Positions 14,712 to 27,931 are shown, counted from the first letter of the stretch. The stretch is 44,407 nucleotides of DNA from a virus (IMGVR_UViG_3300010279_000003:1-44407), one strand, 5' to 3'. Numbers and translations are program-made. Notes: generated from the sequence alone by a model not told the origin.

Positions 14712-15001
14712 GCCTTGCAACTGACATCCTGAAACGAAGCGGCCTTGCGCCGCTGTCACCGAGAACGAACACCCGAATATACAAGCGCCGCCGTAACGCG
14801 CTGTACCCTGAGATTCAAGCCAGACGCAAAGCCATCCGCGCCTGCGGATTCCAGAGCGGGAAGGCCGTTAATCTAGGCGAGTTTAAGACGAAGGAACGCG
14901 CAGCAATCGCTAATCGGTTATTTAATTACTGGAAATCGCTGGGATATGATGATATTCCGACGAAACCGCAGAGACGACAATACATCTGGAGACATAAATA
15001 A
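14708..15001 (+). CDS. Hypothetical basic protein
   Basis: ATG at 14708 overlapping upstream stop. Confidence 0.5.
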   Translation: MSLATDILKRSGLAPLSPRTNTRIYKRRRNALYPEIQARRKAIRACGFQSGKAVNLGEFKTKERAAIANRLFNYWKSLGYDDIPTKPQRRQYIWRHK

Positions 15002-15076
15002 ACCGTTATTAAGATAATTCCTAACCGTGCTATCCTCCGGTTACTGCATACTTAATACGCACCTGGAGGATTCATC

Positions 15077-15385
15077 TTGGATAAATTTACTGAAACAGTG
15101 ACAGGCTGGCTTCTCGCTGCCGCGCTAGCCGGAGGGGTAATCGGGCTACGACAACACAAAGCCACTATTACTGGTCCTGTCGATGCTCTCTGTTTTCTCT
15201 CCACTGGATTTGCGTGCGCCGTATTTGGTGCACCTCTCGCCGCCCAATGGTTCGGTATCACCGGCGAGCGCGAGATAGCTGGCCTCGGATTTATCATCGC
15301 TGTCCTCTGGATGCCCATCTATTCCCGCCTCTCCGGTATCGTCGCCGGAGAATATATCGCACGTCGAGGAGGCACAGATGAATGA
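15077..15385 (+). CDS. Putative holin (three predicted transmembrane segments)
   Basis: 102 aa, TTG start 8 nt after GGAGGA; immediately upstream of endolysin. Confidence 0.55.
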   Translation: MDKFTETVTGWLLAAALAGGVIGLRQHKATITGPVDALCFLSTGFACAVFGAPLAAQWFGITGEREIAGLGFIIAVLWMPIYSRLSGIVAGEYIARRGGTDE

Positions 15386-15650
15386 GTTATTCTGGTTCGG
15401 TGGTATGCTGGCAATCGGAGGCGCATCGCTGTTTAATGTGTATCACCCCCGCGTGGATGACGGACTATTTGGCCGGGTGCTCTATATCCTGACTGCTATT
15501 GTCTGCGCCGCCGGAGGCATTCACCTGTTACAGGGCAGCATGTCGCCAACGTTGCCGGAGACATTAATCACATTAGTTGCGCTGCGTCAGATTCGACAGG
15601 CGTGGCTGTCATACGGAGGGCATGAGCGTGTCTCGAAATATTTCCGATAA
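15378..15650 (+). CDS. Membrane protein (second holin component or antiholin)
   Basis: 90 aa, two hydrophobic segments, overlaps holin stop and endolysin start. Confidence 0.45.
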   Translation: MNELFWFGGMLAIGGASLFNVYHPRVDDGLFGRVLYILTAIVCAAGGIHLLQGSMSPTLPETLITLVALRQIRQAWLSYGGHERVSKYFR

Positions 15651-16116
15651 TGGCTTACATTTCTGCGCCGCGTTCGAGGGATTCCGCGGAACTGCGTATC
15701 GTGCTACGCCGAATGAGAAGTACCTGACTATTGGGTACGGTCACTATGGGCCGGACGTAACACCAGGTAAGACCATCACCCCTGGCCAAGGCCTCCTGTT
15801 ACTGAATCGCGATATGGCTAAGGCCGTAGCTGCGGTTGATGCAGCAGCACACCATTCGCTGACACAGGCGCAGTTCGACGCCGTGTGTGACCTGGTCTAT
15901 AACGCCGGTGCAGGTGTGATTGCAGCTACTACTGGCACGGGTAAGGCGCTGCGTTCCGGTGATGTTGCGACGCTACGGGCTAAACTGGCGCTGTTTATCA
16001 ACCAGAACGGCAAACCGCTACTCGGCTTGCGCCGCCGTACAGCGGGTCGTCTGGCGCTGTACGACGGTAAACCGTGGCAGGAGGCTGAGGCTATTGGGCG
16101 CGCGGTGAAAGGTTGA
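15622..16116 (+). CDS. Endolysin, lysozyme (GH24-like)
   Basis: FEGFRGTAY and YLTIGYGH motifs; start ATG 15622 inside ORF-track ORF 15577..16116. Confidence 0.85.
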   Translation: MSVSRNISDNGLHFCAAFEGFRGTAYRATPNEKYLTIGYGHYGPDVTPGKTITPGQGLLLLNRDMAKAVAAVDAAAHHSLTQAQFDAVCDLVYNAGAGVIAATTGTGKALRSGDVATLRAKLALFINQNGKPLLGLRRRTAGRLALYDGKPWQEAEAIGRAVKG

Positions 16117-16183
16117 CACCTAAGACTAATCCGACGATACTTAAATCACCTCCTGTTCCATCCCTCTGCTCTCCAGTTTTATC

Positions 16184-16212
16184 CCGGCCCTGACCCAGCC
16201 GGGATTTTTTTT
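16184..16212 (+). terminator. Intrinsic terminator after the lysis genes
   Basis: Stem CCCGGC/GCCGGG followed by T8. Confidence 0.7.
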
Positions 16213-16234
16213 ATCTATTTTCTGCAATGACTAG

Positions 16235-16263
16235 TTGACTACTACCCTAGACCCTATTATATT
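16235..16263 (+). promoter_or_regulatory. Sigma70-like promoter (TTGACT-N17-TATATT)
   Basis: Followed by leader CGACAACGAGAACGGAGTAGAGAAG and ATG at 16297. Confidence 0.55.
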
Positions 16264-16296
16264 TACTCCATCGACAACGAGAACGGAGTAGAGAAG

Positions 16297-16488
16297 ATGA
16301 AAATTACTAAGATTAAGCATACCGATAACTGGGGTGATTTCCTGGAGATAGAGAAGTGCAGGGATGGTTCATTACTTATAACTTGCACCGACGGAGATAG
16401 TGACGAATTATCTAATGTTAATGTGAGCCTCGATGATTTTATGTCTATTGCTGAGCAGGTTATGGCGTTTTATGGAGATGTTAAATGA
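16297..16488 (+). CDS. Hypothetical protein
   Basis: 63-aa ORF with strong RBS. Confidence 0.5.
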   Translation: MKITKIKHTDNWGDFLEIEKCRDGSLLITCTDGDSDELSNVNVSLDDFMSIAEQVMAFYGDVK

Positions 16489-16634
16489 AAATCACAGATA
16501 TCGAAGCATTCAAAGACGCACAATTGATGGCACGCATCGCCGTTAGTAACCTGAGCAAAAGCATCCCAGCGGCCGCGTTCTGGTTCGCTGCGATGCAGAC
16601 ACTGAAAGCAGCTTATGCAGGAGAGAAGAAATGA
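16485..16634 (+). CDS. Small hypothetical protein (~49 aa)
   Basis: ATGA overlap with neighbours. Confidence 0.35.
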   Translation: MKITDIEAFKDAQLMARIAVSNLSKSIPAAAFWFAAMQTLKAAYAGEKK

Positions 16635-16789
16635 GCGAACAAGGTCAAGTAAGCCAACCGTTACGAGTAGGCCGTAAAGTCAGTCACACCCCGTTCCCGA
16701 CACGCGAGGAACTGATGAAACGAAACAGTTTCTCGGGGCCGGACAAGAACAAGTATCTCAATCGCATGTGGGGAGAGCGTAAAGAATGA
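16631..16789 (+). CDS. Small hypothetical protein (~52 aa)
   Basis: ATGA overlap with neighbours. Confidence 0.35.
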   Translation: MSEQGQVSQPLRVGRKVSHTPFPTREELMKRNSFSGPDKNKYLNRMWGERKE

Positions 16790-16974
16790 CTGACCGTGAA
16801 TACGAGAAAGCCTGTGTAGAAGCGGCACTCCGTCCCACCGACAATGGTGAATCGGAGATTGCTTGCCTGGATACTATGATTCAGTACTACGCAAATAAGG
16901 TAGACCGCCTGATGGAGCAACGTCGTGAACTGATTAACCGCTTCAACCTGAACAAAGGTGACACTAATGCCTAA
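16786..16974 (+). CDS. Hypothetical protein
   Basis: 62-aa ORF. Confidence 0.5.
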   Translation: MTDREYEKACVEAALRPTDNGESEIACLDTMIQYYANKVDRLMEQRRELINRFNLNKGDTNA

Positions 16975-17158
16975 AATCACAATCGCATCACTCGAGCGCC
17001 GTATTCTGGTGCTTGAGTCAGAGAAACAGACGTTAGGCGGGCAACTGTCAATTAACGGTGAATTTCAACTGGCGGCGTTTAAGTTGTTGTTGGAAGAACT
17101 GCGTAATAAGGCTTACGAGGAAGAACTGCGCGAACAGTATGAAGGATCAAGGTTGTGA
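16967..17158 (+). CDS. Hypothetical coiled-coil protein
   Basis: ATG 16967 inside ORF-track ORF 16958..17158. Confidence 0.5.
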   Translation: MPKITIASLERRILVLESEKQTLGGQLSINGEFQLAAFKLLLEELRNKAYEEELREQYEGSRL

Positions 17159-17337
17159 AAGCGCCTGAACCGGTAGTAATTGATGGCGTCCTGTGGAAAC
17201 CCTACTCGGTTAACCACATCGACGCCGACGGGAAGAAGTTTAGCTTCTACATTTTTGCAATTAGCCGTGAGCACGCCGCTTGTGTGGTCGATGATATACG
17301 AGAAACGGCGTGGCTTGGCGATGAGGTAGTGGGGTGA
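17155..17337 (+). CDS. Hypothetical protein
   Basis: GTG start overlapping upstream stop. Confidence 0.45.
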   Translation: MKAPEPVVIDGVLWKPYSVNHIDADGKKFSFYIFAISREHAACVVDDIRETAWLGDEVVG

Positions 17338-17339
17338 TT

Positions 17340-17510
17340 ATGTTCAGTGACATCAACGCAGCAATCGAAGAAGCAATATGGCGGCGCTATAACGGCGAGC
17401 AACAGCGGCACTTTTGCCTCGTGCAACGCGGTAACATGATTGCCGTAGTGCAGGACCGGGATAACAAATATCCGAATGCGATGTGGTCAACGAGGAATTT
17501 CTTAGGATGA
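17340..17510 (+). CDS. Small hypothetical protein (~56 aa)
   Basis: Short ORF, ATGA overlap downstream. Confidence 0.35.
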   Translation: MFSDINAAIEEAIWRRYNGEQQRHFCLVQRGNMIAVVQDRDNKYPNAMWSTRNFLG

Positions 17511-17749
17511 TTACCAGCATTCCTAACCTGATTAAAGAATTCGGCACGATGGCGGAGACATGCCGACAAACTGGCCTCAACGAAATGACGATTGCTAAGT
17601 ACAGCAAAGACGTGAAATGTGAGCGCCACGTAATTTATAACAACCGTCTTATGACGCATGTTAAGACAAGCCCGGTGTTATTCACTCGCCGCGGTATCAC
17701 TAAAACTGAGCAACGCATTGCTAAAGAGGAGAACGAATGCGGCTACTAA
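17507..17749 (+). CDS. Hypothetical protein
   Basis: ATG 17507 inside ORF-track ORF 17483..17749. Confidence 0.5.
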   Translation: MITSIPNLIKEFGTMAETCRQTGLNEMTIAKYSKDVKCERHVIYNNRLMTHVKTSPVLFTRRGITKTEQRIAKEENECGY

Positions 17750-17842
17750 TCATCCCTAACGTCTGGGCTATCGCTGTAGCTAACAACCATTACGGCGGCG
17801 ATGGTAAAAGAGCACCACGACACGGCCTGTATAACTGATACA

Positions 17843-17867
17843 AGCCCTCTACGGAGGGCTTTTCTGT
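17843..17867 (+). terminator. Intrinsic terminator at the end of the early plus-strand block
   Basis: Stem AGCCCTC/GAGGGCT, loop TACG, then TTTTCTG. Confidence 0.55.
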
Positions 17868-17959
17868 ACATCCCGCCCAATCCCCTTATATAATCCCTTT
17901 AGACGCGTAGGGCGCGTCTGGTGCGCTCTGATGGTCAGACGCATATGCAAGGGGATTAT

Positions 17960-18505
17960 ATGAAGCTGAAACTCAAGCAGCCATCGCCAGAGGTGGTGCA
18001 AGCTGCACATGAAGAAGCTGTTAGCGCAAACCGTCGCCGTAAACGACCGCGCGGTAAACAGAGCCTTTATCAATCATCCCGTAATTCCGCCGCGTTGTGG
18101 GACCCGGACTATTGCGACGAATTGATTCGTTTCTTCGACCGCACGTCGTGGGAGCTTGTGCCTACCTCCAAAGGCGACGAACGCCCGCTGATTCAGGACA
18201 AACCGCCGTCACTGGCCCGCTTTGCCTTACGCATCGGCGTCACTATCCCGATTATTAAGCTGTGGCTGCGCGAGATTCCCGCATTCGCAGAAGCATGGGA
18301 GACAGCGCAGGCATTGGAAGAGGCATACTTCACTGAGACAGGGGCCGCAGGTATCTCTGCTACGTTTGCCGCTGCGAAACTTGGCCTTGGCAAAGAGAAA
18401 CCAGTTGAATCCGCCGAAGAAACGGCACCGACTGAGATTATTTTCAGTGTTGCGGAGCCTGTAGGTAAAATTGTAACAACGAACATGGGTGAGGTAGAGG
18501 AATGA
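17960..18505 (+). CDS. terS: Putative terminase small subunit
   Basis: Position immediately upstream of terL with overlapping stop/start; basic N-terminal region; ATG 17960 inside ORF-track ORF 17921..18505. Confidence 0.5.
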   Translation: MKLKLKQPSPEVVQAAHEEAVSANRRRKRPRGKQSLYQSSRNSAALWDPDYCDELIRFFDRTSWELVPTSKGDERPLIQDKPPSLARFALRIGVTIPIIKLWLREIPAFAEAWETAQALEEAYFTETGAAGISATFAAAKLGLGKEKPVESAEETAPTEIIFSVAEPVGKIVTTNMGEVEE

Positions 18506-19752
18506 GTATTCAGCTATCCGCGCCGCAGGCACTGTTCCTGAATTGTGACAACAAATACAAGGCCTACGTAGGCGGCTTCGGTAGTGGCAAGACGTTTGTC
18601 GGCTGCCTTGACCTGCTTACGTTTATGCTCAAGCACCCCGGTACGCGCCTGGGCTACTTCGGCCCGACCTATCCCGCCATCCGTGACATCTTCTACCCAA
18701 CATTCGAGGAAGCGGCTAACCTGCTCGGCCTTGATGTGCTGGTTAAATCCGGAGACAAAGAGGTTGTGGTTACTCGCGGTAAGACGGTGCTCGGAACGGT
18801 TATCTGCCGCTCTATGGATAACCCCGGCTCGATTGTGGGTTTCAAAATCGCCGCAGCATGCGTGGATGAGCTCGATGTATTGAGCCGAGAAAAAGCTGAA
18901 CTGGCATGGAACAAAATCGTCGCCCGTATGCGTCTGGTTATCCCTGATGTAACCAACCACATCTCCGTCACCACGACGCCGGAAGGGTTCAAGTTCGTCT
19001 ACGCCAAGTTCAAAGAGAACCCGACACCGAGTTACTCAATGGTGCAGGCTTCCACCCACGAGAACGCGCGATTCCTGCCGCCTGACTACATTAGCTCGCT
19101 GACCGAGACTTACCCAGCGCAACTGATTAACGCGTACCTGAATGGGGAGTTCGTTAACCTGACATCCGGCAGCGTCTACTACGCCTACGACCGACGTAAG
19201 CATCGCAGCAAAGAGACAATCCAACCGGGCGACACGCTGTACATCGGGCAGGACTTCAACGTTACGAAGAACGCCAGCGCCGTGTATGTGCAACGTAAAG
19301 ACGGCTGGCACGCGGTAGCAGAACTGAAGGGCCTGTTCGATACGCCAGATACCGTGCGTGTGATTACCGAGAAGTGGAAGTCGCAAGGCCACCGCATCGT
19401 CGTTTACCCGGACGCCAGCGGCAAGAACCGCAAAACCAACTCGGCGTCAATCTCCGATATCGCCTTACTACAGCAGGCCGGTTTTGATGTTCGCGCTAAA
19501 TCCGCCAACCCACCGGTTAAAGACCGTGTTTTAGCCGTGAATACCGCGCTGGAAAAAGGTAAGCTGTGGGTTAACGACCACTTATGCCCTGAGATAGCGA
19601 AGACACTGGAGCAGCAGGCATATGATGATAACGGAGAGCCTGCTAAAGACGGCGTCATTGACCATATGGCGGATGCTCTCGGCTATCCTGTAGTTTATGA
19701 GATGCCGGTGGTTAAACCAGTAATCAACATCCCGGTGACTTTCGCACTTTAA
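18502..19752 (+). CDS. terL: Terminase large subunit
   Basis: Walker A (YVGGFGSGKTFVG) in N-terminal ATPase region; 416 aa. Confidence 0.85.
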   Translation: MSIQLSAPQALFLNCDNKYKAYVGGFGSGKTFVGCLDLLTFMLKHPGTRLGYFGPTYPAIRDIFYPTFEEAANLLGLDVLVKSGDKEVVVTRGKTVLGTVICRSMDNPGSIVGFKIAAACVDELDVLSREKAELAWNKIVARMRLVIPDVTNHISVTTTPEGFKFVYAKFKENPTPSYSMVQASTHENARFLPPDYISSLTETYPAQLINAYLNGEFVNLTSGSVYYAYDRRKHRSKETIQPGDTLYIGQDFNVTKNASAVYVQRKDGWHAVAELKGLFDTPDTVRVITEKWKSQGHRIVVYPDASGKNRKTNSASISDIALLQQAGFDVRAKSANPPVKDRVLAVNTALEKGKLWVNDHLCPEIAKTLEQQAYDDNGEPAKDGVIDHMADALGYPVVYEMPVVKPVINIPVTFAL

Positions 19753-19764
19753 GAGGATTATTCA

Positions 19765-21234
19765 ATGTTAACTATGAACGGTCAGAATCAGGGTGTTAAG
19801 ACAAAACACCGGGAATGGCTACATCACTTCAATAAATGGCAGAAGGTGCGCCACGCGCTGGAAGGCGACCTCATCCGTTACCTGCGCAATGTCGGGAAGA
19901 ACGAGCCTGACCCGACCTATGCGGCACAGCGCCAGGAAGAATACGAGAACGGCGCTATCTGCTACAACTTCACTAAACGTACCCTGGCGGGGATGGTCGG
20001 CAGTGTTATGTGTAAAGACCCTGAGCAGATTATCCCGCCTGAACTTGAGTACCTGTTACGCAACGCTGACGGTTCAGGTGTCGGGCTATGGCAGCACGCG
20101 CAGGATACGCTAATGGAGATTGATTCGGTGGGCCGCGGCGGGTTGCTGGTTGACGCCCCGGAGACAGCCGCGGCGACAGCGGCGGAACAGAACGCGGGGT
20201 TATTAAACCCGGTCATCGCATTTTATACCGCGGAGAACATCATTAACTGGCGGCTTACCCGCGTCGGTTCAGTTAACCGTGTGACAATGGTCGTGCTGCG
20301 TGAGGTGTTGGAATACTCAGAACCAGGGGAAGAGTTTGAAACAAAAGTCGGTGAACAGTACCGTGTCCTTGACCTGGTTGAGGGCCGCTACCGTCAGCGC
20401 ATTTACCGATTCGATGTCGAAGGTGGCGCACAGGGTGATGTAATCGAAATATTCCCGGAACTCGGCGAACAGTTACGTGGCAAAATCCCGTTCACGTTCA
20501 TTGGGGCGAGCAACAACGATGCGACCATCGACGACGCGCCTTTGCTGCCGTTGGCAGAGCTTAATATCGGGCATTTCCGCAACAGTGCAGACAATGAGGA
20601 GTCCAGCTTTGTTGTAGGGCAACCCACTCTGTTCATCGCCCCGGGCGAGAACATGAGCATGGAACAATGGAAAGAAGCCAACCCACACGGTGTGCGCATG
20701 GGGTCGCGTTCAGGTCATAACATCGGCTACGGCGGCAATGCGTTTCTGGTTCAGGCGGGAGAGAACAACCTTGCTAAGCAGAACATGCTGGATAAAGAGA
20801 ATCAGGCCATCCAGATTGGCGCACAGCTTATCACCCCGACGCAGCAAATCACCGCTGAATCGGCCCGTCTGCAACGCGGCGCTGACACGTCTGTTATGGC
20901 GACAATCGCACGTAACGTAAGCATGGCGTACACCGATGCGTTGCGCTGGGTGGCTGCGATGCTAGGGTTGCGTGAAGGCACAGAGATTGAGTTCAAACTG
21001 AATATGGAGTTCTTCCTGCAACCGATGACCGCTCAGGACCGCGCTCAGTGGATGGCTGATATTAACGCAGGCCTGTTACCGGCTACCGCCTACTACGCGG
21101 CATTGCGTAAGGCGGGTGTAACCGACTGGACTGACGAGGATATTCAGAACGCAATCGAGGATACACCGCTGCCGTTAGGTGCGGTTACTCAGGTGACAGG
21201 CGAGATTCCGCAGGAGCCGCGGCAACAGGAGTAA
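19765..21234 (+). CDS. Portal protein
   Basis: 489 aa immediately after terL, acidic C-terminus; assignment by position and size. Confidence 0.75.
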   Translation: MLTMNGQNQGVKTKHREWLHHFNKWQKVRHALEGDLIRYLRNVGKNEPDPTYAAQRQEEYENGAICYNFTKRTLAGMVGSVMCKDPEQIIPPELEYLLRNADGSGVGLWQHAQDTLMEIDSVGRGGLLVDAPETAAATAAEQNAGLLNPVIAFYTAENIINWRLTRVGSVNRVTMVVLREVLEYSEPGEEFETKVGEQYRVLDLVEGRYRQRIYRFDVEGGAQGDVIEIFPELGEQLRGKIPFTFIGASNNDATIDDAPLLPLAELNIGHFRNSADNEESSFVVGQPTLFIAPGENMSMEQWKEANPHGVRMGSRSGHNIGYGGNAFLVQAGENNLAKQNMLDKENQAIQIGAQLITPTQQITAESARLQRGADTSVMATIARNVSMAYTDALRWVAAMLGLREGTEIEFKLNMEFFLQPMTAQDRAQWMADINAGLLPATAYYAALRKAGVTDWTDEDIQNAIEDTPLPLGAVTQVTGEIPQEPRQQE

Positions 21235-21242
21235 AATAGAAA

Positions 21243-21268
21243 AGCCCCATTACGGGGCTTTATTTTAT
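21243..21268. terminator. Bidirectional intrinsic terminator between portal (+) and 21265..21447 (-)
   Basis: Stem AGCCCC/GGGGCT with T-rich tracts on both sides. Confidence 0.6.
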
Positions 21269-21447
21269 ACATCTCTGCTCGCCAGATAGTCACAGCGAGC
21301 TATGGCTAAGGATAAGCTACGGTATGCGCTATCGGATTTAGCGTGGGTAAACCCAGAAATCATTACGTAATACACCCCTTTATCGTTTAGAACCCAGTAT
21401 TTGCCGTTTTCGTGCATTATGTCTTTTTCTTTGAACATTTTAACCAC
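21265..21447 (-). CDS. Hypothetical protein, orphan minus-strand gene in the late region
   Basis: 60 aa; own class B promoter and RBS. Confidence 0.5.
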   Translation of the reverse strand: MVKMFKEKDIMHENGKYWVLNDKGVYYVMISGFTHAKSDSAYRSLSLAIARCDYLASRDV

Positions 21448-21467
21448 CCCCTGTTTAAGTTATCTGA

Positions 21468-21496
21468 ATAGTACCCTATTATATTGGTGTCTGCAA
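21468..21496 (-). promoter_or_regulatory. Sigma70-like promoter, class B (TTGCAG-N17-TACTAT)
   Basis: Read on minus strand; about 45 bp nearly identical to the copy at 24318..24346. Confidence 0.6.
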
Positions 21497-21540
21497 ATAT
21501 TATTTTTATGCGTTACACTGGCGATACTACGGGAGGGCCT

Positions 21541-22584
21541 ATGAGCTTACTTACATCTCTAATCAGCCACCAAATATGGCTGCAACGCACCGCATCCGGT
21601 GAAGTGAAAGACCTCGCACCGTTCCTTCAGGAGATGCGGGACGAAATCAAACGGCAGGTGCTGTTATTCGGTGACGACGGGCGAAGCACCGCGCGGCTGA
21701 ATAAGCTGTTACGCGACCTTGAAGAAGCACTGACAGGACTTACAGGCGACTGGCAAACAAAGCTGACAGAAGACCTTAAGGAGCTGGCGGCGTATGAGGC
21801 TGAGTGGAATGTGAAGACACTTACGGCTAATGTTAACGCTGAATTTGTTACTCCGACCGCTGAGCAGGTGTGGTCTGCTGCCGTGTTTCAACCGCTGGCG
21901 TTAAATGACAAGCCTGTCGATTTCACCAAGCTGATGGAAGGCTGGGGTGAAACAGAAGTGTCTCGCCTGGTAACCGGCGTTAAGATGGGCTTTGTACAGG
22001 GCCAAACCACACGGCAGATTGTTAAGAATGTCGTAGGCGCTGGTGGGCTGGCAGACATCTCGGAACGAAACGCAGCTACGGTAATACGCACCGCGCTGTC
22101 CCATGTATCGAACGAAGCCCGCAATGAGACGTACCGACAGAATGACGACATCATCGAGAAGTACGAATGGGTGTCAACGCTGGACAGCCGTACCAGTACG
22201 ATTTGCAGAGCCAGAGACGGAATGACGTGGGAAATTGGTAAAGGTCCGATGCCCCCCGCCCATTTTGGATGTCGAAGTACCACTGCACCGGTAATCAGTT
22301 CGGAGTTCGACTTCCTAGATAAAGGTGCAAAACGCGCGGCTAAGGGTGCGGACGGCGGTATGCAGGTAAGCGCAGACACCACCTATTACGAGTTCCTGAA
22401 ACAGCAACCGGCATGGTTCGTGGATGAAGCACTCGGACCTACCCGCGGTGCTATATTCAGGAATAGTGGGATATCCCCAGAGGAATTCCGGGTAATATCC
22501 GTCGACGCTTTTGGTAGACCTTTAACCTTGAAGGAGATGGCGGCGTTAGATAACAGGGTTGCTGAATATCTTAGGTCGGTATAA
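21541..22584 (+). CDS. Head morphogenesis / minor head protein
   Basis: Position after portal; start ATG 21541 with GGAGG RBS inside ORF-track ORF 21484..22584. Confidence 0.6.
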   Translation: MSLLTSLISHQIWLQRTASGEVKDLAPFLQEMRDEIKRQVLLFGDDGRSTARLNKLLRDLEEALTGLTGDWQTKLTEDLKELAAYEAEWNVKTLTANVNAEFVTPTAEQVWSAAVFQPLALNDKPVDFTKLMEGWGETEVSRLVTGVKMGFVQGQTTRQIVKNVVGAGGLADISERNAATVIRTALSHVSNEARNETYRQNDDIIEKYEWVSTLDSRTSTICRARDGMTWEIGKGPMPPAHFGCRSTTAPVISSEFDFLDKGAKRAAKGADGGMQVSADTTYYEFLKQQPAWFVDEALGPTRGAIFRNSGISPEEFRVISVDAFGRPLTLKEMAALDNRVAEYLRSV

Positions 22585-22640
22585 AGTATATCTAGTAGCT
22601 AGCTTTGGTCGGTGAACTACTAAAAATAGAGAAAGAATAT

Positions 22641-22698
22641 AACCCCATGAAGGTATGCCTATCTCTGGCATCGACCAATCTTCATGGGGTTTTCTTAT
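22641..22698 (+). terminator. Long hairpin (12-bp stem AACCCCATGAAG/CTTCATGGGGTT) with T-rich tail
   Basis: Inverted repeat read directly; the ORF-track start at 22655 lies inside it. Confidence 0.45.
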
Positions 22699-22708
22699 AG
22701 GGTTTAAT

Positions 22709-23278
22709 ATGGGAATTGTTTTTGGTGTGGGTATTAACGATGTTTCACCAATAAGTTGCGGAGGGGTGCATATAGCGTCCTACGCCGTATGGAAGAACAT
22801 GTTAAAGAGGTGCTACGACAAGAAATGGCAGCAAAGAAACAGAACTTATATAGGTTGCCGCGTGTCGGACGATTGGTTGGTGTTCAGTAATTTCAAGGTC
22901 TGGTTTGATGATTTTTATGTACCTGGGTGGCAGATAGATAAGGATTTACTTAACCCGGGAAATAAGGTTTACGATGCTTCTAACTGTGTTTTCATCCCTA
23001 AATCCCTCAATACTTTCCTAACAGCCCACGACGCTCTTCGAGGCGAACACCCACTCGGCGTACATTTCCATAAACAAAAGAAAAGATTCATCGCTCAAGT
23101 ATCCGTGGATGGCGTATCTGAACAAATAGGCGCTTACGAAACCGCTCAAGAGGCACACGTAGCATGGTTTCATAGAAAAATTGAATTAGCATATGAATAC
23201 AAAGGTCTTTGCGATAGCATAGACCCACGCCTTTTCGAAGGCGTCTTACGTAAGATTAACTCAATGAAAGAGGTTTAG
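22709..23278 (+). CDS. AP2-domain protein, homing-endonuclease-like
   Basis: C-terminal AP2-like segment (GVHFHKQKKRFIAQVSVDGVSEQIGAYETAQEAHVAW); no clear HNH histidines seen in the N-terminal part. Confidence 0.5.
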   Translation: MGIVFGVGINDVSPISCGGVHIASYAVWKNMLKRCYDKKWQQRNRTYIGCRVSDDWLVFSNFKVWFDDFYVPGWQIDKDLLNPGNKVYDASNCVFIPKSLNTFLTAHDALRGEHPLGVHFHKQKKRFIAQVSVDGVSEQIGAYETAQEAHVAWFHRKIELAYEYKGLCDSIDPRLFEGVLRKINSMKEV

Positions 23279-23281
23279 TTT

Positions 23282-23740
23282 ATGGGCTTTTTTAAAGTAA
23301 CTGATGTGCCGTCGCGTCGCGTAGTCCAGTACGCCCGTGTATCCGGTTCTGGTGAGAACGTAACCTACGTTGAAGATGAAAGTGTACTAGGTACACCTGT
23401 AGACGAGATGCCGTATGCGGACAAGACCGGTATCGCACTCTCTGCTGCTGGTATGCTTTATGAGATTCCGTATCTGGCAGATGCTGGTGATGTGTATTTC
23501 TCTGTGCAACCGAAAGACACCGAGCTGGTCGACGGTAGCGCCACCATCACTGTCGAAGTTAAGGCGGGTAAAGCGCCGTATGTACTGACCTGGTACAAAG
23601 ACGGGAAGGAAGTGGTGAACGCCCCGGAAGAGGCTCTGTCTCTGACTGTTAATGCGGCTGGTGAATACTTCGTTAAAGTTACTGATGCCGATGGTGCGGA
23701 GGCCGTAAGCAAAGCGGCGAAGGTCTCTAAACCAGGATGA
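23282..23740 (+). CDS. Ig-like domain protein (possible capsid decoration)
   Basis: YVLTWYKDGKEV...GEYFVKVTDADG pattern typical of Ig-like domains. Confidence 0.5.
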   Translation: MGFFKVTDVPSRRVVQYARVSGSGENVTYVEDESVLGTPVDEMPYADKTGIALSAAGMLYEIPYLADAGDVYFSVQPKDTELVDGSATITVEVKAGKAPYVLTWYKDGKEVVNAPEEALSLTVNAAGEYFVKVTDADGAEAVSKAAKVSKPG

Positions 23741-23744
23741 TAAA

Positions 23745-23773
23745 AGGCCCCATAATGGGGCCTTAGTTTTATT
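23745..23773. terminator. Bidirectional intrinsic terminator
   Basis: Stem AGGCCCC/GGGGCCT, loop ATAAT, T-rich tail. Confidence 0.6.
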
Positions 23774-24290
23774 TAAATCGCGCAGGCATTAACACCATAA
23801 AGGCCGTGTTTGAAAATTGTATTTTGCATCCTCTGGTTTGGTCCTGGAAATCGAAACGAGCAATTTCATTTTTGTATGCCTTAGAAATCTTGTACGCGTC
23901 TGCCAAATAGCGCAGAGTGAACCCTATACTGTCGACAACACCCGGTGTGATGTGCGCCACGCGTCTCCAGTCAGGAAAGTTTCCTTCTACAACATCTACC
24001 GGAAGTGTACATATAAGCGCACGATTATCGTCATAGAAAGATACACTGCCGTTGTCGTGGTTTACCTCTGCGTAGTTAAATTTAGAAGGCTCTCTCCCTT
24101 TGATGTCTATGAGAGTCCCTTTCTCAACGTTGGTCTTCACATTGTCGCAGAACAATCTATGACTGTCCGTAGACACTATCAATCCTTCAGGGTCTATGTA
24201 AAAAGCGTTCAAATAGTAGCGCACATCATTTTTAGCCCTGCATATTTTCGCCCCTACATACGCAGGGAAAGTAATTACTGTAGTAACCAT
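23769..24290 (-). CDS. Truncated beta sliding clamp (DnaN) homologue: domain II plus the C-terminal half of domain III, no domain I
   Basis: Matches to E. coli DnaN as I recall it: DVRYYLN, TDSHRL (vs TDGHRL), FPDWRRV (vs FPDYRRV), IGF..YL.D, C-terminal VLMPARF (vs VVMPMRL); own promoter and AGGAG RBS. Confidence 0.7.
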   Translation of the reverse strand: MVTTVITFPAYVGAKICRAKNDVRYYLNAFYIDPEGLIVSTDSHRLFCDNVKTNVEKGTLIDIKGREPSKFNYAEVNHDNGSVSFYDDNRALICTLPVDVVEGNFPDWRRVAHITPGVVDSIGFTLRYLADAYKISKAYKNEIARFDFQDQTRGCKIQFSNTAFMVLMPARFK

Positions 24291-24317
24291 TTATCATCTC
24301 CTGTTTAAGTTAACTGA

Positions 24318-24346
24318 ATAGTACCCTATTATATTGGTGTGCGCAA
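24318..24346 (-). promoter_or_regulatory. Sigma70-like promoter, class B (TTGCGC-N17-TACTAT) driving the DnaN-like gene
   Basis: Read on minus strand; conserved leader TTAACTTAAACAGGAG follows. Confidence 0.6.
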
Positions 24347-24399
24347 ACTATTTGTTTATATATTCCAGTTATTCCGCTCAATTGTAAATGTTGGAATAA

Positions 24400-24413
24400 A
24401 CTATTCGAATAGT
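24400..24413. promoter_or_regulatory. Perfect 14-bp palindrome ACTATTCGAATAGT (operator-like)
   Basis: Read directly; built from the ACTATTC element found in the promoter family; abuts TTGACT at 24413. Confidence 0.5.
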
Positions 24414-24441
24414 TGACTTTTCACTAAAAATATGATAAGCT
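24413..24441 (+). promoter_or_regulatory. Candidate promoter (TTGACT-N17-TAAGCT)
   Basis: Consensus -35, weak -10; same TAAG-T type -10 as the candidate at 12024..12052. Confidence 0.35.
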
Positions 24442-24447
24442 CCACCT

Positions 24448-24645
24448 GAGCTTGTGAAGTATGAGCAAGCGACCGCGGCGCGGCAGGTAACGGAGCTGGA
24501 CGTAAGTCCTGAGTGTAGTTACGCTGACGCGTTCGGAAGGGCCATACTCTATTGCTTGTGTAAAAAGTAACTGGTTTACTGAGATTACGCCGTTTCTATG
24601 TTTAAATGATAAGGACTAGCGCCCCGCTTTAAGGCGGGGCTTTAC
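24448..24645 (+). ncRNA. Candidate non-coding transcript or leader (~200 nt) between promoter and terminator
   Basis: No ORF of 60 aa or more in the ORF track; only very short ORFs or a 37-codon GTG frame without convincing RBS. Confidence 0.3.
24621..24645 (+). terminator. Intrinsic terminator upstream of the spanin genes
   Basis: Stem GCCCCGC/GCGGGGC, loop TTTAAG, T-rich tail. Confidence 0.55.
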
Positions 24646-24664
24646 TTATCGAGAAAGGGGAAAC

Positions 24665-25051
24665 ATGAATCTTAAAGCAACTGTCGTAGCCGGAGCATGT
24701 TTCGTCGTCCTAGCCTACGCACACGGCATCTATCAATACCGCAGCGGCTGGGGTGAAGGCCGTGCTAATCTCGTTTCGCAGCAACAGCAGAAAGCACAGG
24801 CTGAGCTGACGAAGAAAACACAACGGCAGCAGCAGGATGAATCAAAGGCCGCCGCCGCTGACAACGAAGGCAAGACGAAATCAGAGGTGATTACCCGTGA
24901 AGTCGTTAAGTACATTAAAACGCCTGGCCGCAGCGTGTGCACTTTCGACGATGCTCGCGTCCTGCTCAAGTCCCACGCCGTTGCCAACGCCAATTCCATC
25001 CCCGGATACGACGATGATGCAGCCGCCGTGCAAACTGGCACCGCCAAGTAG
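24665..25051 (+). CDS. i-spanin (Rz-like)
   Basis: N-terminal transmembrane segment, then charged Q/K/E-rich periplasmic region; 128 aa. Confidence 0.7.
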   Translation: MNLKATVVAGACFVVLAYAHGIYQYRSGWGEGRANLVSQQQQKAQAELTKKTQRQQQDESKAAAADNEGKTKSEVITREVVKYIKTPGRSVCTFDDARVLLKSHAVANANSIPGYDDDAAAVQTGTAK

Positions 25052-25160
25052 CGACGCTGACGAGGATTTAGCTATCGACGTTCAGAACGCCGAATGTGTA
25101 CGGCAACTGAGACTGAAAGTGTTCATGTTGCAGGATTACGTGAGGAATATTCTGGAATAG
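24897..25160 (+). CDS. o-spanin (Rz1-like lipoprotein), overlapping the i-spanin in another frame
   Basis: Lipobox LASC after basic N-region, proline-rich mature part; GTG start 24897 with GAGGTG RBS. Confidence 0.65.
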   Translation: MKSLSTLKRLAAACALSTMLASCSSPTPLPTPIPSPDTTMMQPPCKLAPPSSDADEDLAIDVQNAECVRQLRLKVFMLQDYVRNILE

Positions 25161-25242
25161 TTGCCTTGTATGTTGGAATAATTTATTCTTGACATGTAAA
25201 TCCGGGAGGCCCGGATTCCAACGTCCAGGGGACATACTGACT

Positions 25243-25944
25243 ATGAATCGTTTTTTACACTATCCGTTCCAGGAAGAAGCTGGGGCAGAAGATAAATCTG
25301 GCGGTGGCGACGCTCCAAAAATGTTCACCGCTGAAGAAGTTCAGGCGATGATTGAGAAAGAAGTTGCCGGACTTAAGGCCAATCAGGAAGCATTGCTGGC
25401 GGAGAAGAAAGAAGCCGCCCGTAAAGCAAAAGAGGCCGAAGAGGAACGTCAGCGCGCGCACCAGGAGGCGCTAAAAGCCGCCGGTAAGATGGACGAGTTC
25501 GAAAAGACGATTCGTAGCCAGTATGACCCGGTGTTAGCCGAGAAAGATGGTCGCATAACCAAAATGGCTGAGCGCATCCTCGGCAGCGAACGTAAAGCGG
25601 TGTTAGGCTCTTTCGCAGGTGACTTTATTACCCCGGAAGCAGTAGACATTCTTGCTCCGTTCGTTAAGACTGAGTTCGAAGGTGATGATGTGGTTACTAA
25701 GTTTGTTGGGCCAGACGGCGGTGTAATCACGACTGACCCTGAACAGTTCCGCAAATACCTGCGCGAACACAAAGCGTTTTCGCATTTGATTAAAGCAAAT
25801 GCAGCTTCCGGCGGCGGGGCTTCCGGTGGCAAAGGCGGCGGGGCCGCACCAGCGTTTAAAGACATGAGTGAAGCGGAGCGTTTAGCTCTGTATAAATCGA
25901 ACCCTGCCGAATTTGAACGGCAACTTAAAGCCCTGAGGAAATAA
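25243..25944 (+). CDS. Putative scaffolding protein
   Basis: Charged coiled-coil-like protein immediately upstream of the capsid gene; ATG 25243 inside ORF-track ORF 25189..25944. Confidence 0.55.
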   Translation: MNRFLHYPFQEEAGAEDKSGGGDAPKMFTAEEVQAMIEKEVAGLKANQEALLAEKKEAARKAKEAEEERQRAHQEALKAAGKMDEFEKTIRSQYDPVLAEKDGRITKMAERILGSERKAVLGSFAGDFITPEAVDILAPFVKTEFEGDDVVTKFVGPDGGVITTDPEQFRKYLREHKAFSHLIKANAASGGGASGGKGGGAAPAFKDMSEAERLALYKSNPAEFERQLKALRK

Positions 25945-25946
25945 TA

Positions 25947-26996
25947 ATGGCAATTACCACTATCGGCGATATCGTAACTGGCAACATCCCGGTCCTGGCG
26001 TCTTATATGACCGAGGACCCGGTAGAAAAAACCGCGTTCTTCCAGTCCGGTATTCTTACCCCTACTCCGTACGCCGCCGAGATTGCCCGCGGCCCGTCCA
26101 ACGTCGCTAACATTCCTTTCTGGAAAGCGATTGATACTTCTATCGAGCCTAACTACTCGAACGACGTATACCAGGACATCGCTACCCCGCGTAACGTGCA
26201 AACCGGCGAGATGATGGCGCGCGTTGCATACCTGAACGAAGGTTTTGGCCAGGCGGACCTGACTGTCGAACTGACCAGCCAGAACCCGCTGCAATCCGTA
26301 GCGTCCCGTCTGGATAACTTCTGGCAGCGCCAGGCGCAACGCCGTCTGATCGCTACCGCGCTCGGTCTGTACAATGACAACGTAGCCGCTACCGACGCAT
26401 ACCACGAGCAGAATGACATGGTTGTAGACGTGTCTGCTACTCTGGGCTTCGACGCAGGTGCGTTCATCGACGCCACCCAGACTATGGGTGATGCGCTGAT
26501 GGGCAACGGCGGAGAAGTGCTGGGTGCTATCGCGATGCACAGCTTCGTTTATGCGCAGGCCCGTAAGCAGCAGCTTATTGACTTCATCAAAGACGCCGAC
26601 AACGACACACTGTTCGCCACCTACCAGGGTTACCGCGTGATTGTTGACGACAGCATGACCGTAGTCGGCACCGGCTCTAGCCGTAAGTTCATCTCCATTA
26701 TCTTCGGTAACGGCGCTATCGGTTACGGTGAAGGTTCTCCGTCCAACCCGTTGGAATACGAGCGCGAAGCGTCTCGCGGCAACGGCGGTGGGGTAGAAAC
26801 CCTGTGGACCCGTAAGACCTGGTTGCTGCACCCACTGGGCTACAGCTTTACCAGCGCAGTAATCACCGGTAACGGCACCGAGACCGTCGCACGTTCTGCT
26901 TCATGGCAGGACCTGGCGAACGCCTCCAACTGGAACCGCGTTGTTGAGCGTAAGCATGTACCGATTGCCTTCCTGGTAACTGGTGTCGGTGCTTAA
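25947..26996 (+). CDS. Major capsid protein
   Basis: 349 aa after scaffold gene, followed by a strong terminator; assignment by position and size. Confidence 0.7.
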   Translation: MAITTIGDIVTGNIPVLASYMTEDPVEKTAFFQSGILTPTPYAAEIARGPSNVANIPFWKAIDTSIEPNYSNDVYQDIATPRNVQTGEMMARVAYLNEGFGQADLTVELTSQNPLQSVASRLDNFWQRQAQRRLIATALGLYNDNVAATDAYHEQNDMVVDVSATLGFDAGAFIDATQTMGDALMGNGGEVLGAIAMHSFVYAQARKQQLIDFIKDADNDTLFATYQGYRVIVDDSMTVVGTGSSRKFISIIFGNGAIGYGEGSPSNPLEYEREASRGNGGGVETLWTRKTWLLHPLGYSFTSAVITGNGTETVARSASWQDLANASNWNRVVERKHVPIAFLVTGVGA

Positions 26997-27012
26997 GGTT
27001 AAGCTATAATCG

Positions 27013-27040
27013 AGAGGGACTTCGGTCCCTCTTTTCATTT
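27013..27040 (+). terminator. Intrinsic terminator after the capsid gene
   Basis: Stem AGAGGGAC/GTCCCTCT, loop TTCG, T-rich tail. Confidence 0.7.
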
Positions 27041-27751: not shown

Positions 27752-27931
27752 ATGACAGATAATTATGTAATCCGTGAAAAGTACACCCACGTCGATATTG
27801 TCGATGGCCAGGTAATGCCCGTCCGCGGTGTTGTGGAAGCGGATGCGCTGGATGCAGCACAACCGGACAACGAAGAAGCGCACAACAACGGCGGTGGCAC
27901 TAAGCGTCGTCGCCGTAAGTCAGAGGAATAA
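27752..27931 (+). CDS. Small hypothetical protein (~59 aa)
   Basis: Short ORF with AAGGAAAGG RBS. Confidence 0.35.
   Translation: MTDNYVIREKYTHVDIVDGQVMPVRGVVEADALDAAQPDNEEAHNNGGGTKRRRRKSEE

Follow-up and report, generated by a model that had tools for sequence, protein, structure and literature searches.

The 44,407-nucleotide (nt) viral sequence IMGVR_UViG_3300010279_000003:1-44407 (hereafter, the window, i.e., the whole stretch of DNA that was analyzed, with positions counted from its first letter) carries its predicted lysis genes at two separate sites. Two holin-type membrane proteins and an endolysin of glycoside hydrolase family 24 (GH24) are encoded at 15077-16116, and the only recognizable spanin pair, made up of a protein of the inner membrane (i-spanin) and a lipoprotein of the outer membrane (o-spanin), is encoded at 24665-25160 between head genes. 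The distance from the endolysin stop codon to the i-spanin start codon is 8,548 nt. The pair is best interpreted as an overlapped two-component spanin of the Jersey family, with envelope localization and activity predicted from its sequence features and gene context, and the probability of this reading of the window as a split lysis system is estimated at about 90%. The split layout is the published, subfamily-wide organization of the Guernseyvirinae; it is not peculiar to the window and was already known.

A megablast search with positions 15000-26000 matched 487 phage records, nearly all of them from Escherichia or Salmonella siphophages of the Guernseyvirinae (Kagunavirus and Jerseyvirus), with 83-89% coverage and 89-92% identity in the best matches; the first 25 kb of the window produced the same match pattern. 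The i-spanin protein is 100% identical to its counterpart in Escherichia phage vB_EcoS_fPoEco01. Because of these relatives and this identity, the window is identified as the genome of a Kagunavirus-type siphophage. Its predicted lysis genes are as follows.

15077-15385, plus strand: holin I, 102 amino acids (aa), TTG start codon after a GGAGGA Shine-Dalgarno sequence; PHROG holin family phrog_2359 (E value, 4e-29)
15378-15650, plus strand: holin II, 90 aa, overlapping the holin I gene by 8 nt; PHROG holin family phrog_2508 (E value, 2.5e-32)
about 15622-16116, plus strand: GH24 (T4-lysozyme-type) endolysin; Pfam family Phage_lysozyme, PF00959 (E value, 7e-27), and PHROG endolysin families phrog_7/33703
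24665-25051, plus strand: i-spanin, 128 aa; PHROG Rz-like spanin family phrog_2536 (E value, 2e-54)
24897-25160, plus strand: o-spanin, 87-aa precursor, GTG start codon after a GAGGTGA Shine-Dalgarno sequence; PHROG families phrog_5672/1267 (E value for phrog_5672, 5e-30)

The spanin pair

The i-spanin has a single hydrophobic segment, residues 1-23 (maximum Kyte-Doolittle-15 value of 2.17), which matches type II inner-membrane topology, and its Cys92 is invariant in all five aligned homologs, down to 30% identity. The o-spanin carries the lipobox LAS/C, with Cys23 followed by Ser at position +2 (the lack of Asp at +2 is consistent with sorting to the outer membrane). Its predicted mature form of 65 aa is Pro-rich, with 8 Pro among the first 25 residues, and Cys45 and Cys67 are invariant across the homologs compared, so both partners, the i-spanin with Cys92 and the o-spanin with Cys45/Cys67, have predicted periplasmic cysteines that could form intermolecular disulfides. 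The o-spanin gene lies in the +1 frame relative to the i-spanin gene, with an offset of 232 nt and an overlap of 155 nt, and extends beyond the i-spanin stop codon. Members of the i-spanin family were found in 518 phage records, many of which are annotated as spanins; in tblastn comparisons, the window protein showed 64% identity to that of AG11 and 93% identity to that of Sciku.

This pair corresponds to the “Jersey” i-spanin/o-spanin family of Kongari et al. (2018), which comprises 27 phages, including Jersey, SETP3, AG11, K1G, K1H, and K1ind1-3, and is characterized by overlapped architecture (with a 155-bp overlap in phage Jersey) and constant Cys45 and Cys67 residues (PMC6139136). The window genes share with this family sequence homology, the 155-nt overlap, the N-terminal transmembrane domain (TMD), the lipobox, the Cys45/Cys67 pair, and the slot between the Hoc-like and scaffold genes. 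There is no substantial difference, except that the window adds an HNH endonuclease gene and a clamp-like gene in the neighboring slots, which are variable among the members. Existing annotations of related phages point the same way: all five lysis genes of phage Ivi are annotated as here, other relatives label the pair as i-spanin and o-spanin, and the Sciku record cites K1G entries named “overlapping inner/outer membrane spanin.” Separation of the spanins from the holin and endolysin genes has been explicitly stated for phages Schulenberg (PMC6763661) and fBC-Eco01 (PMC9825357).

The holin-endolysin cluster

The initial annotation of the window, made from the sequence alone, had placed a holin, a second membrane protein, and a GH24 endolysin at 15077-16116, and all three open reading frames (ORFs) were confirmed, with matches to PHROG holin families and PF00959. 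Holin I contains three hydrophobic segments (predicted TMDs at residues 7-26, 35-56, and 65-86), and its counterpart in phage Ivi is annotated as “putative class I holin.” Holin II contains two such segments (residues 4-21 and 28-52) and is probably the antiholin partner of holin I; the equivalents of these two proteins in Schulenberg have been named a “holin/antiholin pair” (PMC6763661). Both proteins show the properties by which such pairs are recognized, namely, at least two TMDs each, small size, location directly 5' of the endolysin gene, and membership in PHROG holin families.

The endolysin matches PF00959 with a score of 94.6 bits, against a gathering cutoff of 22.3. Its start is taken as the ATG at 15622, which is probable, as the open frame extends back to a TTG at 15577. 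No N-terminal hydrophobic segment was found in this protein, so it would have neither a signal-arrest-release (SAR) nor a signal sequence and is predicted to be a soluble, holin-dependent GH24 enzyme.

Layout in related phages

Related loci were collected with an alignment of five i-spanin homologs, which yielded 80 loci from IMG/VR; marker proteins were mapped on 87 loci in total, 70 of which are of the Guernseyvirinae type and 16 of the contiguous holin-endolysin-spanin type (including Klebsiella phage Kp4856-1). In every one of the 70 Guernseyvirinae-type loci, the i-spanin/o-spanin pair is found between the MuF/Hoc genes and the scaffold gene. In all 32 loci in which the GH24 endolysin could be placed, it ends 6,173-9,118 nt upstream of the spanins (median, 8,055 nt) and, without exception, precedes the terminase gene. 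The distance between the i-spanin and scaffold starts is less uniform: in L050, L052, L054-L060, L062, L064-L067, and L069, the two starts are 900-1,650 nt apart, versus the usual distance of about 580 nt, which implies an extra gene between the spanins and the scaffold in these distant lineages.

The 16 lambdoid-type loci encode homologs of the window spanins (36-41% identity, with the same overlapped architecture) directly after the holin and SAR-endolysin genes. In Klebsiella phage Kp4856-1, a contiguous holin-SAR-endolysin-spanin cassette is located upstream of the terminase gene. The occurrence of these homologs as the last genes of contiguous lysis cassettes supports a lysis role for the window pair.

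A third arrangement is found in Yersinia phage vB_YenS_P400. Similarly to the window, its i-spanin homolog (30% identity) is encoded in the head-gene region, 3' of a head-assembly gene and an HNH gene, with a gene for a DNA polymerase (pol) III beta-like protein nearby. Unlike in the window, an endolysin of an unrelated type and its flanking small genes are located directly 5' of the spanin gene, so the cassette is not split. The endolysin of this phage is not homologous to that of the window, and there is no evidence of an exchange of the whole cassette between the two. Since members of this one spanin family are encoded in contiguous lambdoid cassettes, in the head-module cassette of vB_YenS_P400, and on their own in the head module, the spanin genes evidently move as an independent module, as judged from these gene orders.

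Search for other spanins and alternative readings

The initial annotation regarded the genes at 24665-25160 (an Rz-like gene with an overlapping lipoprotein gene) as the sole recognizable spanin pair, located between head genes about 8.5 kb from the other lysis genes, and suggested a search for embedded spanin ORFs in 16117-16296 and around the endolysin gene. Both descriptions hold, and the search revealed no spanin beside the endolysin. A lipoprotein scan that considered each nested start codon on both strands of the entire window identified the o-spanin as the only credible lipoprotein ORF; the other two matches are antisense, one of them inside the portal gene. A relaxed lipobox scan of 15000-18000 gave no match, and no ORF was found in 16117-16296. 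Nor did the whole-window scan or the endolysin neighborhood reveal an ORF for a unimolecular spanin of the T1 gp11 type, with a lipobox and a C-terminal TMD. When the relaxed scan was applied around the endolysin gene in 32 relatives, matches were obtained in 19 loci, and the o-spanin, used as the positive control, was recovered in all 32. These near-endolysin matches were rejected as spanins: they represented in-frame internal starts in TMD2 of holin II, one stray 37-aa ORF (in L066), and a nonconserved alternative-frame ORF. This last ORF, of 126 aa, begins with MKSL(V/A)W…LFSGC, has a lipobox-like signal, and overlies the holin I and II genes in L009, L014, L030, and L041; the window and most loci lack it, and it is probably spurious.

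Several observations weigh against the interpretation of the window as a split lysis system. Neither Pfam nor NCBIfam has a model that matches either spanin or either holin, which are recognized only by PHROG families, and no published complementation or localization test of the Jersey spanin family was found in the searched literature. The single-sequence AlphaFold2 model of the i-spanin (helices 3-84 and 94-107) is of low confidence, with a mean pLDDT of 57; it is consistent with the published description of the periplasmic domain of the Jersey i-spanins as two helices and a linker (PMC6139136) but is unreliable alone. Six distant loci with a full 10-kb upstream flank (L063, L067, L068, L069, L071, and L072) showed no match to the endolysin or either holin of the window; these loci probably carry another type of endolysin or holin or have it in another position. 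The promoter and terminator assignments given below are computational only. Finally, the only transcriptome for the group, that of vB_Eco_K1B4, places lysozyme, MuF, and capsid genes in a single “middle” class of 42 of the 57 genes and does not mention the spanins (PMC12645636), and is therefore too coarse to resolve spanin timing.

It could be argued that the pair is some other envelope cargo, such as a superinfection-exclusion or receptor-masking lipoprotein with its membrane partner, and that the outer membrane is disrupted by other means or need not be disrupted at all. The slot does house mobile or cargo genes, including those for the HNH endonuclease and the reverse-strand clamp-like protein, and AG11 has an amidase gene in the neighboring portal-MuF slot; moreover, no Pfam or NCBIfam spanin model matches, and the spanin function of the family is predicted from sequence and context. 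However, homologs of both proteins, with the same overlap, end contiguous holin-endolysin cassettes in the 16 lambdoid-type loci, the combination of TMD, lipobox, Pro-rich region, and conserved Cys residues is a spanin signature, and the pair, unrivaled by any other candidate in the window scans, is kept in all 70 related loci. The cargo interpretation accordingly appears very unlikely.

Slightly less probable still is an unrecognized outer-membrane disruptor (a unimolecular spanin or a disruptin-like cationic peptide) encoded among the small ORFs at 16297-17900, which would make the distant pair redundant. About ten small ORFs of unknown function do follow the endolysin gene, and disruptin-type peptides, having no lipobox, would evade the scans. 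Nevertheless, the relaxed criteria revealed no lipobox ORF in 15000-18000 and no conserved candidate near the endolysin in the 32 relatives, the ORF at 16297-16488 has no PHROG match, and between the endolysin gene and these small ORFs there are a strong terminator and then a new promoter. That the separation is an artefact of where the window was opened or of an assembly misjoin can be practically dismissed: although the genomes of relatives have been deposited with differing start points (that of fPoEco01 as circular), 32 independent loci and deposited genomes agree in gene order and roughly in distance, the intervening genes including those for terminase, portal, and MuF, and on a circular genome the path in the opposite direction would measure about 36 kb.

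Predicted transcription units

In the split-lysis reading, the two groups of lysis genes would also belong to different transcription units. The signals and genes that define these units are listed here.

16181-16212, plus strand: intrinsic terminator after the endolysin gene, 8-bp GC-rich stem, 9-nt loop, and T8 (fold of -13.8 kcal/mol; z score, -3.6)
16235-16263, plus strand: sigma-70-like promoter, TTGACT-17-TATATT, a 10/12 consensus match only, which would start the unit with the small ORFs, terminase, and portal
23744-23764, no strand assigned: bidirectional terminator between the Hoc-like gene (plus strand) and the converging clamp-like gene (minus strand) (fold z score, -3.4)
24413-24441, plus strand: extended -10 promoter, with -35 element TTGACT (24413-24418), 17-bp spacer, and TG-n-TAAGCT (-10 element at 24436-24441); a predicted function
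25243-25944, plus strand: scaffold gene, assigned from phrog_206 (scaffold) and annotations in relatives
25947-26996, plus strand: major capsid gene, assigned from annotations in relatives
27012-27033, plus strand: strong intrinsic terminator after the capsid gene (fold of -15.5 kcal/mol; z score, -4.1), annotated at the same place in Sciku

The terminator at 16181-16212 was found by direct reading; the pattern scan for consensus promoters and terminators missed it because its 9-nt loop exceeds the 8-nt limit that was set for hairpin loops. Its 3' arm and T run recur in 21 Kagunavirus-type loci and are located 3' of the endolysin gene in the two that were checked (Ivi and L009). Given its position directly 3' of the endolysin gene, the holin-endolysin cluster would end a transcription unit, and the 16117-16296 gap consists of this terminator followed by the promoter at 16235-16263.

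The 8,548-nt interval contains small ORFs and genes for terminase, portal, MuF-like protein, HNH endonuclease, Hoc-like protein, and the reverse-strand clamp-like protein, with intrinsic terminators at 16181-16212, 21241-21261, and 23744-23764 (Sciku has a terminator annotated at the place equivalent to the last of these). The immediate surroundings of the spanins are those of a head module, with MuF-like, HNH, and Hoc-like genes and then the reverse-strand clamp-like gene upstream and the scaffold and major capsid genes downstream. The arrangement differs from a contiguous lambda-type cassette, in which the holin, endolysin, and spanin genes are adjacent in one transcription unit.

The promoter upstream of the spanins was likewise missed by the consensus scan, because its -10 element, TAAGCT, matches the consensus at only 3 of 6 positions, and was seen by alignment. 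All of the aligned Kagunavirus, Jerseyvirus, and phiEap-2 sequences (those of the window, Ivi, Sciku, AG11, and phiEap-2) preserve the pattern T[TAG]GACT-17-TGnTA[AC][GC]CT. The pattern scan, alignment, and folding revealed no intrinsic terminator in the spacer between the o-spanin and scaffold genes. Since no terminator follows the o-spanin gene and the next one is at 27012-27033, the spanins are probably cotranscribed with the scaffold and major capsid genes, as the first genes of that unit rather than as an autonomous one. The proposal of the initial annotation that the spanins have their own upstream promoter and terminator thus holds in its first part, as the upstream promoter is conserved, but the supposed terminator is a hairpin that lies between this promoter and the i-spanin ATG.

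Three units can accordingly be predicted from the positions of these signals. The first would contain, among other genes, the two holin genes and the endolysin gene and end at the terminator at 16212. The second would start from the promoter at 16235, comprise the small ORFs, terminase, portal (followed by the terminator at 21241-21261), MuF, HNH, and Hoc genes, and end at the terminator at 23764. The third would start from the promoter at 24413, comprise the leader, the spanins, scaffold, and capsid, and end at the terminator at 27033.

The free-standing HNH homing endonuclease (22655-23278; phrog_953, E value of 3e-79) is encoded after the MuF-like gene and before the Hoc-like gene; fPoEco01 also has it, but Ivi and Sciku lack it there, the kind of presence/absence polymorphism that homing endonucleases typically show. 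The clamp-like gene (23769-24290, minus strand), which is found inside the head module, encodes a truncated protein that resembles the sliding clamp (DNA pol III beta); in Sciku, it is located between the portal and MuF genes instead.

Leader, hairpins, and palindromes around the spanins

The spanin genes are surrounded by the following elements.

24393-24406, no strand assigned: palindrome copy 1, GGAATAAACTATTC, directly 5' of the spanin promoter, within the repeat at 24388-24406
24448-24664, plus strand: predicted structured 5' leader of ~215 nt, conserved across genera, with the invariant block CGGAAGGGCC at 24534-24543
24608-24650, plus strand: bipartite stem-loop that ends 15 nt before the i-spanin ATG; its inner stem (24621-24640) is the terminator-like hairpin of the scan
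25175-25214, plus strand: palindrome copy 2, GGAATAATTTATTC, in the spacer between the o-spanin and scaffold genes, with TTGACA and the invariant hairpin CCGGGAGGCCCGG but without a T-tail terminator

The leader contains several GNRA-type hairpins. It could not be assigned to any Rfam family (the window had no matches at gathering thresholds, and the leader gave only noise at E values of ~1-10). The presence of a conserved small protein in the leader was rejected, as the ORFs vary in frame and length by lineage and phiEap-2 has none across the CGGAAGGGCC block. The leader does not appear to be a relic of a lambdoid pR'-6S-tR' late region either, as blastn-short and nhmmer comparisons with 17 contiguous-cassette loci matched nothing. 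Analysis of the pre-spanin hairpin and the whole leader with MAFFT and RNAalifold yielded no shared fold of the 5' leader domain, as sequence divergence between the lineages precluded their alignment, and hairpin conservation was judged instead by per-lineage folds with shuffles.

By this measure, the bipartite structure at 24608-24650 is kept in five sequence-divergent lineages, with z scores of -2.4 to -4.8, and its stem shows compensatory changes within Kagunavirus (C-G, A-T, and T-A). In phiEap-2-type phages, the equivalent structure is not followed by a U tract, which argues that it is not a canonical terminator. The bases that flank the stem (GUUUC/GAAAC in Kagunavirus and GUAU/AUAC in Jerseyvirus) could enclose the i-spanin Shine-Dalgarno sequence, and the structure may serve in processing, stability, or translational attenuation instead of termination.

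The near-palindrome GGAATAA-W-TTATTC(C) (15 bp) has only two copies in the window, at 24393-24406 and 25175-25188, which bracket the spanins. Both copies lie within the 12-nt direct repeat ATGTTGGAATAA, next to TTGAC (repeats at 24388-24406 and 25170-25188). Most loci whose i-spanin identity reaches about 53% or above retain both positions, across Kagunavirus, Jerseyvirus, and phiEap-2-like phages, and a third copy is found just 3' of the o-spanin gene in the lineages that have an extra gene before the scaffold. Among other palindrome-like matches, the one at 27925 was rejected as a stop/start gene junction, and those at 15379 and 7944 contain two mismatches and lack TTGAC. Cross-genus conservation is higher in the 82-nt o-spanin/scaffold spacer (25161-25242) than in the flanking coding sequence; the spacer includes the invariant hairpin CCGGGnGGCCCGG at 25202-25214 and, around the Shine-Dalgarno sequence of the scaffold gene, an invariant GTCCAGGGGACATA(C/T)TGA block.

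A tentative suggestion, less likely to be right than wrong, is that the palindromes, promoter, leader, and stem-loop form an undescribed cis-regulatory module by which the timing or dose of spanin (and capsid) expression is set separately from the holin-endolysin unit. Such a module could possibly combine an operator for a phage late regulator with either a site for RNase III-type processing or a hairpin for translational attenuation. The duplicated palindrome could also be a scar left when the spanin cassette came to lie before the scaffold gene. The reports on Schulenberg, fBC-Eco01, Ivi, and Sciku are silent on the promoter, leader hairpin, and palindrome around the spanins.

Comparison with phages lambda and T4

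The lysis genes of the window represent the same three functional classes as the S-R-Rz/Rz1 genes of phage lambda, and in both cases the o-spanin gene lies in the +1 frame of the i-spanin gene; in addition, the distant homologs of the window spanins described above occur in lambda-like contiguous cassettes upstream of the terminase gene. The two systems differ in that a single late transcript of lambda carries all four genes side by side, with Rz1 fully embedded, whereas the window spanin genes are overlapped and located 8.5 kb away, in another terminator-bounded unit. A Pfam search detected no similarity between the window spanins and the lambda Rz/Rz1 families.

Phage T4 provides a precedent for spanins that are unlinked from both holin and endolysin, as its spanin genes pseT.3 and pseT.2 are located away from t (holin) and e (endolysin) (PMC6139136, Fig. 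8 legend). However, the architecture of the T4 spanins is of the “separated” type and their sequence family is a different one, and the T4 holin and endolysin genes are apart from each other, whereas those of the window are together.

Proposed lysis mechanism and implications

Based on the established biology of spanins (PMC6139136), lysis by the window phage would follow the standard three-step scheme for Gram-negative hosts, with the genes written in two places. The inner-membrane-anchored i-spanin and the outer-membrane lipoprotein o-spanin would form periplasm-spanning, disulfide-linked complexes that build up during morphogenesis and stay inert as long as the peptidoglycan is intact. Upon triggering of the holin, the endolysin would escape and degrade the wall, whereupon the spanins would disrupt or fuse the outer membrane. 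In such a scheme, the spanins need only be expressed late, and their cotranscription with the holin and endolysin genes would be unnecessary. The harmlessness of spanins until the wall is gone would explain why unlinked spanin genes have been tolerated and inherited throughout the subfamily.

For those who annotate or engineer Kagunavirus and Jerseyvirus phages as therapeutic candidates, the practical consequence is that spanins should be sought among the head genes and not beside the endolysin, and that deleting or moving the “lysis cassette” at 15.0-16.1 kb would leave some of the lysis functions behind. The sole part of this system that retains some novelty is the conserved regulatory architecture around the spanin genes, which bears on the dosage of spanins relative to the abundant scaffold and capsid proteins that would be produced from the same unit.

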